A stretch of DNA of 32,000 nucleotides from Halalkalibacterium halodurans (GCF_004376175.1 NZ_SNUY01000017.1:28529-60528), one strand, 5' to 3'; positions 17,994 through 31,590 are shown, numbered from the stretch's first letter. The notes: a model not told the origin generated them from the letters alone. Translations and numbers: made by a program.

Positions 17994-20009
<2,016 letters not shown>

Positions 20010-20046: not shown

Positions 20047-20322
20047 AAAAAGCCCTCATCCCATTGGGACGAGAGCCTAGTGCTCACGCGGTACCACCCA
20101 TGTTTTCCAATCACTTCACAATGATTGGCTCATGAAGTCACGTTGACTTCTCTGTTAACGCCAGCTACGTTCCTCCCTCATGTTTAAAAGCAACACTCGA
20201 AAGAAAACCCTCCCAGGACCATCTTCCAGCTGCCCCCTATACCGGTTCCCAGCTCCCCCGGCTCTCTGCTTAGCATGACGCAAATAGGTCAATCAGCTGT
20301 ACTCATCCCTTCATCAGGTCTC
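20047..20322 (-). promoter_or_regulatory. T-box riboswitch leader of metS (Stem I, T-box sequence, terminator/antiterminator)
   Basis: The following are read on the minus strand. A GA/K-turn-like CUGAUGA and an AGUA S-turn half precede the stem CAGCUG. These are followed by the AG-bay AGAGAG and the distal loop GGGAGCUGGGAA. The stem closes at CAGCUG, followed by the specifier loop GAAGAUGG, with AUG at 20220-20222. The T-box core GGGUGGUACCGCG is rc of 20087-20099. An 11-bp terminator GCUCUCGUCCC-AAU-GGGAUGAGGGC plus UUUUU lies at 20047-20076. Confidence 0.85.
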
Positions 20323-20368
20323 TTATCACGTTGTGTTCTTACGCTCATTTTCACCTTGACTTAGCCAA

Positions 20369-20398
20369 AATATACCGAACAACCCTCATTCCTGTCAA
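20369..20398 (-). promoter_or_regulatory. Sigma-A promoter candidate for the metS T-box leader
   Basis: The minus strand reads TTGACA (rc 20393-20398, overlapping the herA-like TGA stop at 20395-20397), an 18-nt spacer, then TATATT (rc 20369-20374). Confidence 0.55.
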
Positions 20399-22227
20399 GG
20401 GCGGTCATAAACAGTGGCGAACGGTGTTTTTTGCTTTTTTAGTTTCCCTGCATCACAAAGTCGTTCCAACTCTTTTTTTAACTCGCTTACATCCCACCGC
20501 TTACCTGTCTGTTTATGAAGCGCATCCATATGATTCATAACACTTGTCTCGGCCAGCGGTAAAAACGGCTCAAGGGCACTGATTAGCTCGTCATCTCCTT
20601 GGGTTTTCCGTTCCTGTAGTTCATCGAATGGATTGACCGTATGTGGACTCGTCGAATGGGCTAGCCGGATACGAACAGCCATTGTTCGCCCCATTATAGC
20701 GGATGACACAAACACATCTCCTGATCGCAAATATGGCAAACGTTTTCCTTCTTCATTTGTTAGATCGGTTTCTTCCTTAATCGTCTGAATGTCCGTGCCA
20801 CGCACCGTTCGGAAAACGAACTTCGAATTGAGCTGAGCCGTAATCGTCTCATCAAGCAAGGTTGGCCGCTGCGTCGCAAAAATGAGAAACACGCCATATT
20901 TCCGTCCTTCCTGAGCGATTTCCTTCAGTACTGGCTTTGCAGGGGCCTCATATCCTTTTGGTGCAAAGTTATGGGCCTCATCGGTGACAATGACAAACGG
21001 TGGAAAGAAATCCCCCTGCTCGTGCTGCAGCTTCGCATCCTTATAGGCTCTTCTTTTTCCGTATAATGCTCCAACGACATAGCTTGAAAACACTTGGAGC
21101 AACCAGACTGCTCCTTGAACGACAACAAGCTGTCCGCGGTGCAAGCTCTCTTCAATGACACGGATGCTCTGCTGAAATAACCCAGCTTGATTGAGACGGT
21201 ACAGTCGCCATTGAATCCCTTTAACAGAGGCAAGGGGTAAGCTTCCATATTGCTCGAGTAGTTTTTTGTACGATTGATATCGTTCAATCTCTTCGCGACT
21301 CATTCCGCCGTCATGTAGCAAGTTGTCCACCTTTTGCCGACCGATTTCAAGGGCGTCCGCCAAATTCCCAACCCGGTCACTAAATGACTGGTAGCTATCC
21401 TTTCGTTTATGGAGCGATTGAATGACGTTCACCATCGATTCGGACAATGAACCAGCCGCTTGCAATAGGCGCTCCACATCCCGCGTCGATAATGCCGAGA
21501 AATCCACTCCCACATCACGACCGATTTGCACGACGGTATAGTTCGATTGATAGGAAGGAGCATCCTCCTGTCCTTCGGCTTTAGCTGAAAAATTCATCTC
21601 AAAGTGAGGATCGAACACAAGGGTCGGGATCTCGAGCTTCATCAGCTCCTCCAACATGACTCGAAGGCCGAACGACTTTCCTGAGCCCGATCCACCGAAC
21701 ACACCGATATGGGGATATTGTTGCATCGCGCGAATATCAAAAATAAACGGAACCCCTTCCTGCTTCCGCGTCTGTTCTTGTTCACGAATTTTCATTAATC
21801 CTTTCAATTCGTCTGGAAGCGTCTCTGCTACATATTCCGTAGACTTAACCTCTCCTAACACAAGACCATCTTCAGGCCTTGCTTTCACTAACAGAGGAGC
21901 GATTTCTGCAAAAGACGGATGTCGTACACTCGCACCTGTCTGAATCGGTTGGATCGCCTCTTCAAACAGACGCACCTTCGCTAAATGAATATCATCTGAG
22001 CCAATATCGTATCCGAGTTGCTCTAACGTTTGCAGCACTTGCTGATCCACGATCCCTTTATCAAACCCCATCGGGATGTAGCGATTATAGGAAAAGGTCT
22101 CCACCACTTCCCCTTTCGGATCGAACAAATCTTCATCCTCAAGAACGACCATTTCGTTCATACGAAATTTGTGTTCTTTTGAGGCCACATAGACTTCATG
22201 CTGGGTCGTAATCCCGACTACTTGCAT
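20395..22227 (-). CDS. HerA-like FtsK/HerA-superfamily ATPase (DUF87-type), 610 aa
   Basis: Walker A is GVFGGSGSGKSF (aa 175-186; GGSGSGKS is nt 21673-21696). Walker B is PFVIVTDEAHNF (aa 410-421). The downstream IFATQRPT motif follows, and about 225 aa of largely helical insert lies between Walker A and Walker B. The N-terminal roughly 100 aa is beta-rich, consistent with a HAS-barrel. RBS AAGGAGAG precedes the ATG. The gene starts 24 nt after the upstream nurA-like gene. Confidence 0.8.
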   Translation of the reverse strand: MQVVGITTQHEVYVASKEHKFRMNEMVVLEDEDLFDPKGEVVETFSYNRYIPMGFDKGIVDQQVLQTLEQLGYDIGSDDIHLAKVRLFEEAIQPIQTGASVRHPSFAEIAPLLVKARPEDGLVLGEVKSTEYVAETLPDELKGLMKIREQEQTRKQEGVPFIFDIRAMQQYPHIGVFGGSGSGKSFGLRVMLEELMKLEIPTLVFDPHFEMNFSAKAEGQEDAPSYQSNYTVVQIGRDVGVDFSALSTRDVERLLQAAGSLSESMVNVIQSLHKRKDSYQSFSDRVGNLADALEIGRQKVDNLLHDGGMSREEIERYQSYKKLLEQYGSLPLASVKGIQWRLYRLNQAGLFQQSIRVIEESLHRGQLVVVQGAVWLLQVFSSYVVGALYGKRRAYKDAKLQHEQGDFFPPFVIVTDEAHNFAPKGYEAPAKPVLKEIAQEGRKYGVFLIFATQRPTLLDETITAQLNSKFVFRTVRGTDIQTIKEETDLTNEEGKRLPYLRSGDVFVSSAIMGRTMAVRIRLAHSTSPHTVNPFDELQERKTQGDDELISALEPFLPLAETSVMNHMDALHKQTGKRWDVSELKKELERLCDAGKLKKQKTPFATVYDRP

Positions 22228-22251
22228 CTCACACTCTCCTTTTTCCTAAAC

Positions 22252-23205
22252 TTAATAAGGCCGTTCCTCACGCTTCTGGGAAAAGTAGCGTTCCTTTAGC
22301 TCCGTTTCTAAATACTGATCGACCATCGCTTCGACTAGTTTATCTGATAGCCGCACCTCACGATCAACAATATCAAGGAAGAGAGGAATCCCCCTACCGT
22401 CTTCAGGAGTCATCGTTGCTAAGAAATCAGCAACATCGTTCATCTCCTCCGCCTGCTCTTCTAACATATCAAACCCTGTAATAGCCGGACTACTGCTAGC
22501 CCTCATCCAGACAGATCGGAGCCCAGCTTTCTGTTGAATGCTTTCAATATATAAACTCTCCCTTTTATGCAATACACCGAATAACAAATCCCGATCATAG
22601 ACAGTTTGGTGTTTAAACATCGTCGTAAAAGGGGATAGACTACCAATATTCCTTGTTGTTATCTCCTCTGACACGCCAACAAGAAGGGTCCCTCGCTCTA
22701 GGGCCCTGTTTCTAAGTACTTCCCACTCCTCTGGAGCATCGATTCGATAATGGTACAAGGCGCCATCCATCATTAAAATGGCAAGTTCTGCTTGATCCAT
22801 TAAATCTAGTGCTGCTTTAAGTTCAAGCTTCGACAAAATGTGGGCTCGCCATTTCAGCGGCTCCGTCTCATCCTCAGGTGAGTCAAGAAGAGGTGAATAG
22901 ACGTCTGTTTTTTTCGTTTCAACACCTTGGAGTGTTTTCGCTAAAGCTTGAAATAAATAGAGCACATGAGGAGGCGATCCCTTTGTCTGATTAACCGACC
23001 CATCCACAGCTCCGATCTGCTTATTATCAAGCCAACGAGCAATCATTTCGCTCCCTAAAGGCTCCATTTGTCGAAAGACAGCTCCTGAAATCGATAAAGA
23101 GTGTCGAATTTTGTCTACTTCGAGTGACGAAATAGTTGACCTTTCTTTTAAGATATCGTTAATTTTCGTCAGTTTTTCTATTAAATCTGAAGAGATTTCA
23201 ATCAT
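22252..23205 (-). CDS. NurA-like nuclease (RNase H-like fold), 317 aa from the preferred start
   Basis: The ordered motifs are IGAVDGS, KLELKA, ILMMDGALY, VGVSEE and GIPLFLDIVDRE. This is the order and spacing of NurA acidic catalytic motifs as I recall them. The preferred start is ATG at 23203-23205 (MIEISSD...), preceded by GAAAGGATGAAAAT. The ORF-track TTG at 23256 has no RBS. Confidence 0.7.
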   Translation of the reverse strand: MIEISSDLIEKLTKINDILKERSTISSLEVDKIRHSLSISGAVFRQMEPLGSEMIARWLDNKQIGAVDGSVNQTKGSPPHVLYLFQALAKTLQGVETKKTDVYSPLLDSPEDETEPLKWRAHILSKLELKAALDLMDQAELAILMMDGALYHYRIDAPEEWEVLRNRALERGTLLVGVSEEITTRNIGSLSPFTTMFKHQTVYDRDLLFGVLHKRESLYIESIQQKAGLRSVWMRASSSPAITGFDMLEEQAEEMNDVADFLATMTPEDGRGIPLFLDIVDREVRLSDKLVEAMVDQYLETELKERYFSQKREERPY

Positions 23206-23295
23206 ATTTTCATCCTTTCGTTTACGTAATACGTTGATATAAAAGGAATCTAGCAAAAAGGAAAAAATTACATTGAATTTTTCTCAAAAAAGTAA

Positions 23296-23324
23296 TTGAC
23301 TTGTTTTGGAAACATTGGTATTCT
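23296..23324 (+). promoter_or_regulatory. Sigma-A promoter candidate of abrB
   Basis: TTGACT (23296-23301), a 17-nt spacer, then TATTCT (23319-23324). Confidence 0.5.
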
Positions 23325-23341
23325 TAGTTCAGATAAAAAAA

Positions 23342-23358
23342 TGTCGAATTATGACACA
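23342..23358 (+). promoter_or_regulatory. Tandem Spo0A-box-like operator downstream of the abrB promoter
   Basis: TGTCGAA (23342-23348, an exact 0A-box consensus) is followed after 3 nt by TGACACA (23352-23358, degenerate). This lies about +11 to +28 from the predicted start and resembles the arrangement I recall for B. subtilis abrB. Confidence 0.55.
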
Positions 23359-23400
23359 TTTTATAAAACAGATTTATTTTTTTCGGGAGGAGAATTTTCT

Positions 23401-23691
23401 ATGAAATCTACTGGTATTGTTCGTAAAGTTGATGAACTTGGTCGTGTGGTAATTCCTATTGAGCTTCGTCGTACATTAGACATTGCTGAGAAAGATGCTC
23501 TTGAAATCTATGTCGACAATGATCGCATCATCTTGAAAAAGTATAAGCCAAACATGACTTGTCAAGTAACTGGTGAAGTATCTGACGACAACCTTTCTCT
23601 TGCAGAAGGAAAGATCATCTTAAGCCCTCAAGGTGCGAAAGATATCTTAAAAGATCTTCAAGATTACGTATCACGTACAACACAATCCTAA
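23401..23691 (+). CDS. abrB: Transition-state regulator AbrB
   Basis: MKSTGIVRKVDELGRVVIPIELRRTLDIAEKDALEIYVDNDRIILKKYKPNMTCQVTGEVSDDNL is nearly identical to B. subtilis AbrB as recalled. The start was trimmed to ATG at 23401, with GGGAGGAG upstream. It is the only plus-strand gene. Confidence 0.95.
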   Translation: MKSTGIVRKVDELGRVVIPIELRRTLDIAEKDALEIYVDNDRIILKKYKPNMTCQVTGEVSDDNLSLAEGKIILSPQGAKDILKDLQDYVSRTTQS

Positions 23692-31474: not shown

Positions 31475-31590
31475 GCTTGGCAGCGTCCTACTCTCGCAGG
31501 GGGAAGCCCCCAACTACCATCGGCGCTGAAGAGCTTAACGACCGTGTTCGGCATGGGAACGGGTGTGGCCTCTTCGCTATCGCCACCAAA
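31475..31590 (-). rRNA. rrf: 5S ribosomal RNA (116 nt)
   Basis: The minus strand reads TTTGGTGGCGATAGCGAAGAGGCCACACCCGTTCCCATGCCGAACACGGTCGTTAAGCTCTTCAGCGCCGATGGTAGTTGGGGGCTTCCCCCTGCGAGAGTAGGACGCTGCCAAGC, a near-canonical Bacillus 5S sequence. Confidence 0.95.

Follow-up and report, generated by a model that had tools for sequence, protein, structure and literature searches.

Genes at the abrB-metS junction

We analyzed a 32,000-nucleotide (nt) stretch of Halalkalibacterium (Bacillus) halodurans DNA, hereafter called the window, and concentrated on two adjacent minus-strand genes between abrB and metS: nurA, for a putative nuclease of the NurA family, and a herA-like gene, for a putative HerA-family ATPase. 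Both proteins had 100%-identical database entries from this organism. An initial annotation of the window had described two co-oriented genes 24 nt apart at this position, each with its own ribosome-binding site (RBS), and direct reading of the sequence bore this out. The pair, its signals and the two genes that flank it are listed below, with protein lengths in amino acids (aa).

22252..23205, minus strand: nurA, 317 aa; putative NurA-family nuclease with a predicted RNase H-like fold (Pfam, AlphaFold2 (AF2) model, Foldseek, homolog alignment)
20395..22227, minus strand: herA-like gene, 610 aa; putative HerA/FtsK-superfamily ATPase (Pfam, phmmer against PDB, AF2 model, Foldseek)
22228-22251, minus strand: nurA-herA spacer, 24 nt, holding the herA RBS AAAGGAG at 22236-22242 (direct sequence reading)
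23211..23218, minus strand: nurA RBS AAAGGATG, 5 nt before the ATG (direct sequence reading)
23401-23691, plus strand: abrB, flanking the nurA side
17994-19976, minus strand: metS, flanking the herA side

A longer open reading frame (ORF) at 22252..23256 on the minus strand would encode 334 aa, and an internal ATG at 23205 gives the 317-aa NurA. The TTG at 23256 was rejected as the start codon: NurA homologs of 312-325 aa share the Met start at 23205, which is therefore the real nurA start. Since metS is controlled from a promoter and T-box leader of its own, nurA-herA is a discrete unit, a genuine two-gene operon.

The gene order around the pair was yaaT-yabA-yabB-yazA-rsmI-abrB, then nurA-herA, then metS-tatD. 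We take the surrounding order to be the origin-proximal order of Bacillus subtilis, and in strain 168 abrB and metS are presumably direct neighbors. As the initial annotation had stated, no Mre11/Rad50 (SbcCD) genes adjoined the pair, either in the window or at the 80 comparison loci described below; its neighbors were abrB, rsmI, metS and tatD. The absence of a base-composition break, flanking repeat, tRNA or integrase, noted by eye at that stage, also held. The GC content of the pair was 0.45-0.485 against a range of 0.38-0.48 over the window, the repeats flanking it were short, chance-level matches and nothing else, no tRNA gene was present within the window, and the ORF list of the window contained no recombinase-like ORF inside or adjoining the pair. 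None of the marks of a genomic island or mobile insertion (composition break, repeats, tRNA target, integrase or transposase) was found at this site.

Family and predicted structure of the two proteins

The 317-aa protein matched the Pfam family PF09376 with 148 bits (cut-off 21, E = 4.4e-43) over 252/254 profile positions, covering residues 63-285. Its AF2 model, built with 85 homologs, had a predicted local distance difference test (pLDDT) score of 89.5. Searching with this model, Foldseek ranked Sulfolobus solfataricus NurA 2ygk first (E = 1.1e-11, template-modelling (TM) score 0.61) and Thermococcus kodakarensis NurA second to fourth, followed by EndoV and Argonaute PIWI domains. These matches agree with the NurA-like assignment made earlier, and every motif quoted then was found in the translations, namely AVDGS, KLELKA, MMDGAL, GVSEE and LDIVDRE in NurA as well as those of the ATPase. 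Among the 85 homologs, E128, D147, D204 and D278 were invariant, and D68 and D281 were at least 90% conserved. In the model, the acidic residues lie on the strand 63-73, the helix 116-138, the strand 141-147 and the helix 275-284, which are the positions where an RNase H-like site holds its metal ligands. This placement comes from conservation and the model, with S. solfataricus D58 and T. kodakarensis D49 as putative counterparts. On the model and the family match, we assign the 317-aa protein to the NurA family, with a predicted RNase H-like (PIWI/EndoV-like) fold. No NCBIfam model matched this NurA, and by its sequence it is a very divergent member of the family.

The 610-aa protein matched the HerA central domain DUF87 (PF01935) with 56 bits (cut-off 23, E = 6e-15). 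It also matched Pfam FtsK_SpoIIIE and AAA_10, as well as TrwB and VirB4-type models at low scores; by sequence, its match to FtsK had E 6e-5. In a predicted RecA-like core, Walker A (GGSGSGKS) lay at residues 178-185, Walker B (VIVTDEAH) at 412-419 and ATQRPT at 451-456. GGSGSGKS, VTDEAH and ATQRP were invariant in 64 homologs, and the QRP motif (453-455) aligned with VSQRP of S. solfataricus HerA. The AF2 model (pLDDT 86) placed the N-terminal strands between residues 2 and 127 and divided the protein as follows.

Residues ~1-155: predicted N-terminal beta-rich domain
Residues ~248-400: predicted helical insert
Residues ~530-610: predicted clade-specific C-terminal tail

The beta-rich N-terminus and helical insert that the initial annotation had described were thus recovered in the model. 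With phmmer against PDB, the top match was S. solfataricus HerA 4d2i, of which the C-terminal core aligned and nothing more. Foldseek ranked the NurA-bound T. kodakarensis HerA 9x1m_A first (E = 1.1e-27, TM 0.60-0.63, 645 columns) and 4d2i next (E = 6e-27, TMt 0.72). The archaeal HerAs outranked both the defense HerAs (1e-17 to 1e-22, including 8xau, 9c1n and 8wiv) and Deinococcus radiodurans HerA (2e-18). These results place the protein in the HerA/FtsK clade, as had been proposed, and the model assigns it to the HerA-family ATPases with a predicted full-length HerA architecture. When 1.84 billion cluster representatives were searched exhaustively, its clade proved to be sharply bounded: about 60 representatives could be aligned along their whole length (215-712 bits, 28-55% identity), and beyond them generic HerA cores scored below 100 bits. 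The ATPase likewise is a very divergent member of its family.

RefSeq gives the name 'DNA double-strand break repair nuclease NurA' to the 317-aa protein and calls the ATPase simply 'ATP-binding protein'. The former name, and a 2021 review that lists Firmicutes among the bacteria with NurA/HerA homologs (PMC8708640), reduce the novelty that the initial annotation had seen in the pair. Its view that the role in endospore formers is undefined was upheld: we found no functional study of Firmicute NurA-HerA in the literature, a negative that does not extend to the founding comparative work (Iyer 2004; Cheng 2015; Fujii 2018).

Position of the pair in related genomes

One genome per species in GTDB (185,579 species) was scanned with the ATPase alignment and two peptide patterns, and 246 species matched, which is a lower bound. 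The best 80 of these 246 species served as comparison loci and were probed with the window's own flanking proteins. All 80 are carriers, so that the comparison describes the site of the pair when it is present and gives no measure of its absence. In 80/80 loci, herA was immediately preceded by nurA on the same strand, and the spacer between them measured 12-60 nt in most cases. The junction was also the same in 80/80: rsmI-abrB (opposite strand), nurA-herA and metS-tatD, wherever the contig reached those genes. The wider cluster yaaT-yabA-(yabB)-(yazA) preceded the pair across the 80 loci, contigs permitting.

The carriers included about 40 species of alkaliphilic Bacillaceae (HerA 74-82% identical to the window protein), Salsuginibacillus (64%), about 30 species of Thermoactinomycetaceae (58-63%), the Halanaerobiales Halanaerobacter, Orenia, Fuchsiella, Halonatronum and Natroniella (55-56%), and unclassified Bacillota metagenome-assembled genomes (MAGs; 53-63%). 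Tabulating the metS-abrB junction, as the initial annotation had envisaged, thus placed the pair there in all 80 carriers; it also revealed an empty junction in three closely related genera, described below.

The idea that a third partner of the pair is conserved in the interval from herA to metS was rejected, the ORFs there being lineage-specific and unrelated. In Halalkalibacter urbisdiaboli (L001, 11964-15645), a 3.9 kb stretch in this interval carried long overlapping minus-strand ORFs in several frames, in which the peptide …CLLRRLPART.RTP… recurred; the stretch resembles a long array of tandem repeats that was inserted ahead of the metS leader, on the herA side. In Halanaerobiales, a membrane-anchored protein of ~410 aa was encoded directly 3' of herA, in two copies in Orenia. 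In many Thermoactinomycetaceae (L039-L060), the interval from rsmI to abrB contained an additional 1.9-3.1 kb that the alkaliphiles lack, and no yabB homolog was detectable in the cluster.

Co-divergence with the neighboring genes

Identities to the window proteins were compared for the three main groups, alkaliphilic Bacillaceae, Thermoactinomycetaceae and Halanaerobiales. In this order, the median identities were 77/61/56% for HerA, 81/65/52% for MetS, 81/69/57% for YaaT and 54/38/35% for NurA. We then compared all-against-all pairwise distances over 68 loci. HerA and MetS distances were correlated with r = 0.92 and a slope of 0.92, HerA and YaaT with r = 0.91, and MetS and YaaT with r = 0.92. 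The HerA-MetS correlation was 0.81 within the alkaliphiles and 0.92 within Thermoactinomycetaceae. Since the distances track those of MetS and YaaT both between and within groups, the pair diverges together with its housekeeping neighbors, and purifying selection acts on the ATPase, when present, with roughly the strength seen for methionyl-tRNA synthetase. NurA and HerA distances were correlated with r = 0.92-0.95. The mean pairwise distance was 0.34 for HerA and 0.53 for NurA, which evolves about 1.6 times faster. These results show that nurA and herA are obligately coupled and co-evolving in the chromosomal branch.

The same junction in three deeply separated groups, together with this co-divergence, favors the reading of the pair as an ancestral resident over that of an insertion. 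It is most likely an ancient, vertically inherited resident of this Bacillota junction that has been lost repeatedly and cleanly. It is much less likely that insertion occurred repeatedly at one site in the absence of any integrase, repeat or tRNA. The initial annotation had described the pair as wedged into the junction, an old, domesticated insertion, a description that the shared junction and the co-divergence do not support.

Junctions that lack the pair

In Salipaludibacillus, Salisediminibacterium selenitireducens and Marinococcus halophilus, abrB adjoined metS without nurA-herA. MetS of these three genera was 75-79% identical to the window MetS, and no remnants of nurA-herA were found in the three empty junctions, even at E = 10. 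With abrB and metS as presumed direct neighbors in B. subtilis 168, the arrangement of that lineage is most likely also a derived state that arose by loss.

In Paenibacillus polymyxa, the MetS closest to that of the window (P0499, 76% identical) was encoded outside the origin-proximal cluster (L086, CP002213.2 3410783-3426801). Its gene neighbors were fur, yidD, dsbD and spore photoproduct lyase, which suggests a relocated or second copy of metS in this genus; this locus is uninformative on the junction.

Relatives of the ATPase on megaplasmids

Full-length relatives of the ATPase (30-40% identity, same domain layout) were found on Firmicute megaplasmids of 300-720 kb. Their hosts were Bacillus thuringiensis, Paenibacillus, Brevibacillus, Aneurinibacillus, Jeotgalibacillus, Clostridium perfringens and Clostridioides. 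Three of these loci were examined.

L081 6256-8848: BTB_502p, B. thuringiensis Bt407
L082 6159-8836: pSC2, P. polymyxa
L083 6241-8794: pJFP838A, C. perfringens

None of the three ATPases adjoined a NurA. In B. thuringiensis, in P. polymyxa and on the metagenomic contig L089 (622-3396), which carries a 37%-identity ATPase, the upstream gene encoded a protein of ~215-220 aa with no clear Pfam family. The 221-aa partner on L089 was 37% identical to the one of B. thuringiensis, and both had a coiled coil and a GGG...FLDEP...THD signature; on this basis they resemble an ABC/SMC ATPase in its C-terminal half. The upstream gene on C. perfringens pJFP838A encoded a Bax1-I family membrane protein. Other neighbors of the megaplasmid ATPases included dnaE, secA, a metallophosphoesterase and ATPases of type IV pilus/type II secretion (T4P/T2SS) systems. 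By comparison, on contig L088 the C-terminus of a NurA ended 18 nt upstream of a 45%-identity ATPase. The clade therefore consists of a NurA-partnered chromosomal branch and a NurA-less large-plasmid branch. To our knowledge, the NurA-less branch is uncharacterized.

Searches of defense, phage and viral sequences

Both proteins were searched against defense-system models, a check that the initial annotation had proposed. In PADLOC-DB v2, NurA had 0 hits, and the ATPase gave partial matches to HerA core models and mad8 only (E 1e-18 to 1e-22). No defense, integrase or mobile genes neighbored the pair in the window or at the 80 loci. A tblastn search of 50,697 phage genomes gave no match to NurA, and no confirmed relative of NurA or the ATPase was found in IMG/VR contigs. 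Compared with viral proteins, the ATPase model gave weak matches, with TM at most 0.44. A phage or viral origin of the pair was rejected, as the phage genome, IMG/VR and viral fold searches all failed to support it.

Proposed mechanism and role of the pair

HerA-NurA complexes have a 6:2 HerA:NurA architecture with DNA threading (PMC12977600, PMC5448004). By homology with the solved complexes of S. solfataricus, T. kodakarensis and D. radiodurans, the 610-aa ATPase would form a hexameric ring, and a NurA dimer would dock on the N-terminal barrel face of this ring. ATP hydrolysis, for which K184 in Walker A, D416/E417 in Walker B and R454 in the QRP motif are the candidate residues, would drive linear double-stranded DNA through the HerA ring into NurA; R454 is the putative arginine finger, as judged by alignment to S. 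solfataricus HerA. NurA would then separate and cut the strands at a metal-dependent RNase H-like site formed by D68, E128, D147 and D278. As a result, DNA ends would be resected or degraded.

We consider it probable that the locus is a nurA-herA operon encoding a HerA-NurA nuclease-translocase, an ancient vertical resident of the chromosome that serves DNA-end maintenance or repair. The role is the least certain part of this explanation. Because the locus is a fixed housekeeping one, descent is vertical and evolution is slow, we lean, by a narrow preference, toward an accessory function in chromosome maintenance or recombinational repair on DNA ends over one in mobile defense. The initial annotation had offered a DNA-end-resection module or a defense module; the resection side of that proposal is retained here, and defense, although conceivable, is disfavored by PADLOC, the phage searches and the fixed locus.

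Several points weigh against this explanation. At the level of the proteins, no solved NurA chain was retrieved up to E = 10 with phmmer or with profiles of 26 and 85 Firmicute NurAs, and because of this the link to the solved structures is made through Pfam and fold comparison alone; NurA is only 11-14% identical to the solved NurAs. The ATPase scored 43-67 bits, over residues ~395-525 only, against the NCBIfam equivalogs for HerA of double-strand break repair (NF040819, NF040937) and for anti-phage-associated HerA (NF042943, NF042944), whose cut-offs are 800-970; it is therefore a HerA-family member that is an equivalog of neither characterized group. Complex formation, nuclease polarity and ATPase activity of the Firmicute members are drawn by analogy from the characterized complexes. 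With respect to descent, vertical inheritance was deduced from synteny and co-divergence and not from a reconciled gene tree, and the ATPase itself served to retrieve the 80 loci. With respect to function, the pair is dispensable in close relatives, which fits an accessory or conflict role as well as repair. The promoter scan and the alignments of alkaliphile and Thermoactinomycetaceae loci revealed no recognizable conserved nurA promoter. No LexA/DinR (Cheo) box CGAACN4GTTCG was present within 250 nt 5' of nurA (at least 3 mismatches in 81/81 loci), and the best match to it there was no better than in shuffled sequence; therefore, the region gives no sequence evidence of damage-inducible expression. 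Finally, according to the argument of a 2026 study, the archaeal complex degrades both strands and may be antiviral and not a resection machine (PMC12977600).

In a bolder version of the preferred explanation, the pair would be a machine for chromosome maintenance ancestral to the Bacillota. It would pre-date the Halanaerobiales-Bacilli split, having descended vertically within the origin-proximal yaaT-yabA-rsmI-abrB-metS cluster, would be neither an archaeal import nor a defense system, and would have a specific role so far unrecognized. Such a role might be the processing of broken or trapped DNA at replication restart, sporulation or germination, possibly controlled by Spo0A/AbrB through the intergenic region common to abrB. 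If true, this would overturn the view of bacterial NurA-HerA as sporadic archaeal acquisitions and would add a third end-processing system beside AddAB and RecJ in spore formers. We regard it as possible, though unlikely.

Anti-phage or anti-plasmid defense, with the HerA ring as sensor and scaffold and NurA as a toxic or DNA-degrading effector, is a little harder to credit still; linear foreign DNA entering the cell would be threaded through the ring and destroyed. Sir2-HerA and DUF4297-HerA set a precedent, and such structures (8xau, 9c1n, 8wiv; E 1e-20 to 1e-22) were among the top fold matches of the ATPase; the PADLOC HerA models and mad8 matched its core, and an antiviral role has been proposed for archaeal HerA-NurA (PMC12977600). 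The absence of the pair from close relatives, hence its dispensability, the location of its NurA-less sister branch on megaplasmids and the lack of an SOS box point in the same direction. Against these stands a locus fixed in a housekeeping cluster in 80/80 carriers across orders, co-diverging with MetS and YaaT, with a HerA that evolves as slowly as MetS. Defense genes are typically mobile, located in variable islands and fast-evolving. The pair has no defense, integrase or mobile neighbors, no PADLOC model matches its NurA, and the searches gave no NurA match in phage genomes and none for either protein in viral contigs. The plasmid relatives of the ATPase are 30-40% identical, none of the three contexts examined has an adjoining NurA, and the best fold matches were the NurA-partnered archaeal HerAs, ahead of the defense HerAs.

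Horizontal acquisition, for example from archaea, followed by insertion at the abrB-metS junction of an H. halodurans ancestor, would account for the empty junctions of close relatives and for the presumed direct abrB-metS neighborhood in B. subtilis 168. It would also be in keeping with the 246/185,579 species genomes that matched the ATPase patterns, a lower bound, and with Thermus and Deinococcus, whose nurA-herA are treated as archaeal imports (PMC12977600, PMC5448004). However, the identical junction and orientation in Thermoactinomycetaceae, Halanaerobiales and Bacillota MAGs would require repeated insertion at the same site, and HerA and NurA distances follow those of the flanking genes between and within groups. 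Composition is continuous, integrase and repeats are missing, and the archaeal similarity is generic, at family level, with 14-20% identity in structural alignments. This origin is very unlikely.

The least probable alternative, which we consider highly improbable, has the ATPase mainly pump DNA in the manner of FtsK/SpoIIIE, for chromosome segregation, sporulation or DNA transfer, with NurA as an accessory that trims trapped or broken DNA and with end resection for recombination no longer the main role: the HerA fold matches (E 1e-27) are far better than the FtsK sequence matches (E 6e-5), NurA is always coupled to and co-evolves with the ATPase in the chromosomal branch, and the globular, N-terminally beta-rich model suggests no membrane anchor of the SpoIIIE/FtsK kind. 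In its favor are the low-scoring matches to FtsK_SpoIIIE, TrwB and VirB4-type models, the far stronger conservation of the ATPase than of NurA (mean distance 0.34 vs 0.53) and the origin-proximal cluster beside yabA and the abrB/Spo0A-controlled region, as well as the endospore-forming groups to which many of the named carriers of the pair presumably belong. Thermus HerA and NurA homologs, moreover, affect DNA transfer (PMC5448004).

Comparison with known HerA systems

The pair is a divergent, uncharacterized representative of the known HerA-NurA type and no new kind of system. It shares with archaeal HerA-NurA (S. solfataricus 4d2i/2ygk; T. kodakarensis 9x1l-9x1p) the predicted combination of a HerA ring ATPase and an RNase H-like NurA nuclease, the best fold matches for both proteins, and the conserved Walker A, Walker B, QRP and acidic NurA motifs. 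It differs from the archaeal systems in the lack of adjoining mre11-rad50, in an identity of 11-20% in structural alignments, in the extra C-terminal tail of ~80 residues on the ATPase and in missing the NCBIfam equivalog cut-offs more than 10-fold.

Among the bacterial members, biochemical or genetic data exist only for D. radiodurans and Thermus thermophilus (PMC8708640). Their pairs (D. radiodurans 7f6d, 7wrw/x; T. thermophilus nurA-hepA) resemble the present one in that nurA precedes herA, no Mre11/Rad50 partner is present and the surrounding genes, which are not repair genes, are conserved within the lineage (PMC5448004). D. radiodurans HerA, however, matched weakly by sequence (E = 6e-5), and by fold it ranked below the archaeal HerAs (2e-18 vs 1e-27). 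The Deinococcus-Thermus genes lie at lineage-specific loci and have been read as archaeal imports (PMC12977600, PMC5448004), whereas the Bacillota pair occupies one order-spanning junction and co-diverges with housekeeping genes.

Sir2-HerA and DUF4297-HerA have in common with the pair the HerA-family ring fold, PADLOC HerA models that match the C-terminal core and a two-gene layout of ATPase plus effector. In contrast to them, the putative effector here is NurA, and the locus is fixed, apparently vertical and slowly evolving, with no NurA match found in phage genomes and none for either protein in viral contigs. The megaplasmid branch aligns with the ATPase over its full length with the same domain layout, and differs in its 300-720 kb plasmid location and in lacking an adjoining NurA in the contexts examined.

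In archaea, HerA-NurA is the principal machine studied for the processing of DNA ends; the bacterial system has been studied only in Deinococcus and Thermus and is regarded there as an archaeal import. The cellular role of HerA-NurA is now questioned (PMC12977600). To this picture the present analysis adds a conserved junction that spans orders, co-divergence with housekeeping genes, an ATPase conserved like MetS, clean empty junctions in close relatives and a NurA-less megaplasmid sister branch. The Bacillota lineage is set apart by one fixed housekeeping junction across very deep divergences, an ATPase as slow as an aminoacyl-tRNA synthetase and clean losses in many relatives. This housekeeping-like vertical behavior of a bacterial NurA-HerA is mildly surprising and experimentally useful for the DNA-repair field, as close relatives with and without the pair form a natural system for comparison, and some of them may be genetically tractable (Shouchella clausii, H. 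halodurans, Alkalihalophilus pseudofirmus). Cells that carry the pair presumably already have AddAB, RecJ and SbcCD, and the system could be used to ask what HerA-NurA adds beside them and to compare repair and defense directly.

Promoters and leaders around the pair

The regulatory features on the two sides of the pair are listed below.

23206..23400, no strand assigned: divergent abrB-nurA intergenic region, 195 nt, in which the nurA promoter must also lie (promoter scan and sequence)
23296-23324, plus strand: abrB promoter TTGACT-17-TATTCT, conserved in alkaliphiles (promoter scan)
23342-23348, plus strand: Spo0A-box-like TGTCGAA, conserved in alkaliphiles (sequence)
20062..20398, minus strand: downstream boundary of the nurA-herA unit, formed by the metS promoter and leader
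20398..20369, minus strand: strong metS sigma-70-like promoter TTGACA-18-TATATT, 11/12 match, overlapping the herA stop codon (promoter scan)
20062-20323, minus strand: metS T-box leader (Rfam RF00230, 89 bits, cut-off 93, E = 2.9e-19)
20050-20078, minus strand: terminator hairpin of the metS leader (terminator scan)

The abrB promoter block and TGTCGAA were kept in about 40 alkaliphile loci, and the nurA-proximal ~90 nt were unconserved save for the RBS. In the related loci, a GGAGG-like block was the sole conserved feature directly 5' of nurA, and in Thermoactinomycetaceae this was the RBS alone. The single sigma-70-like candidate for nurA, TCGACA-16-AAGAAT (23347..23320, minus strand), was rejected as its promoter, as it is weak and overlaps the abrB -10 element on the other strand, from which it is inseparable. 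The back-to-back overlap of this candidate with the abrB elements raises the possibility of co-control by Spo0A/AbrB. A second TGTCGAA was found at 23102-23108, inside the nurA coding region and 240 nt from the first.

On the other side of the pair, the default Rfam scan missed the metS T-box leader, whose 89 bits fall just under the gathering cut-off of 93; the T-box motif GGGTGGTACCGCG was visible in the leader sequence.

Farther out, a 5S rRNA gene was located at 31475-31590 on the minus strand, about 9 kb from herA. Many alkaliphile and Thermoactinomycetaceae draft contigs (L004, L006, L009, L013-L016, L045, L048, L051 and others) break 8.5-10 kb from herA on the same side, which is consistent with an rRNA operon whose distance is conserved, and hence with a synteny that reaches further.

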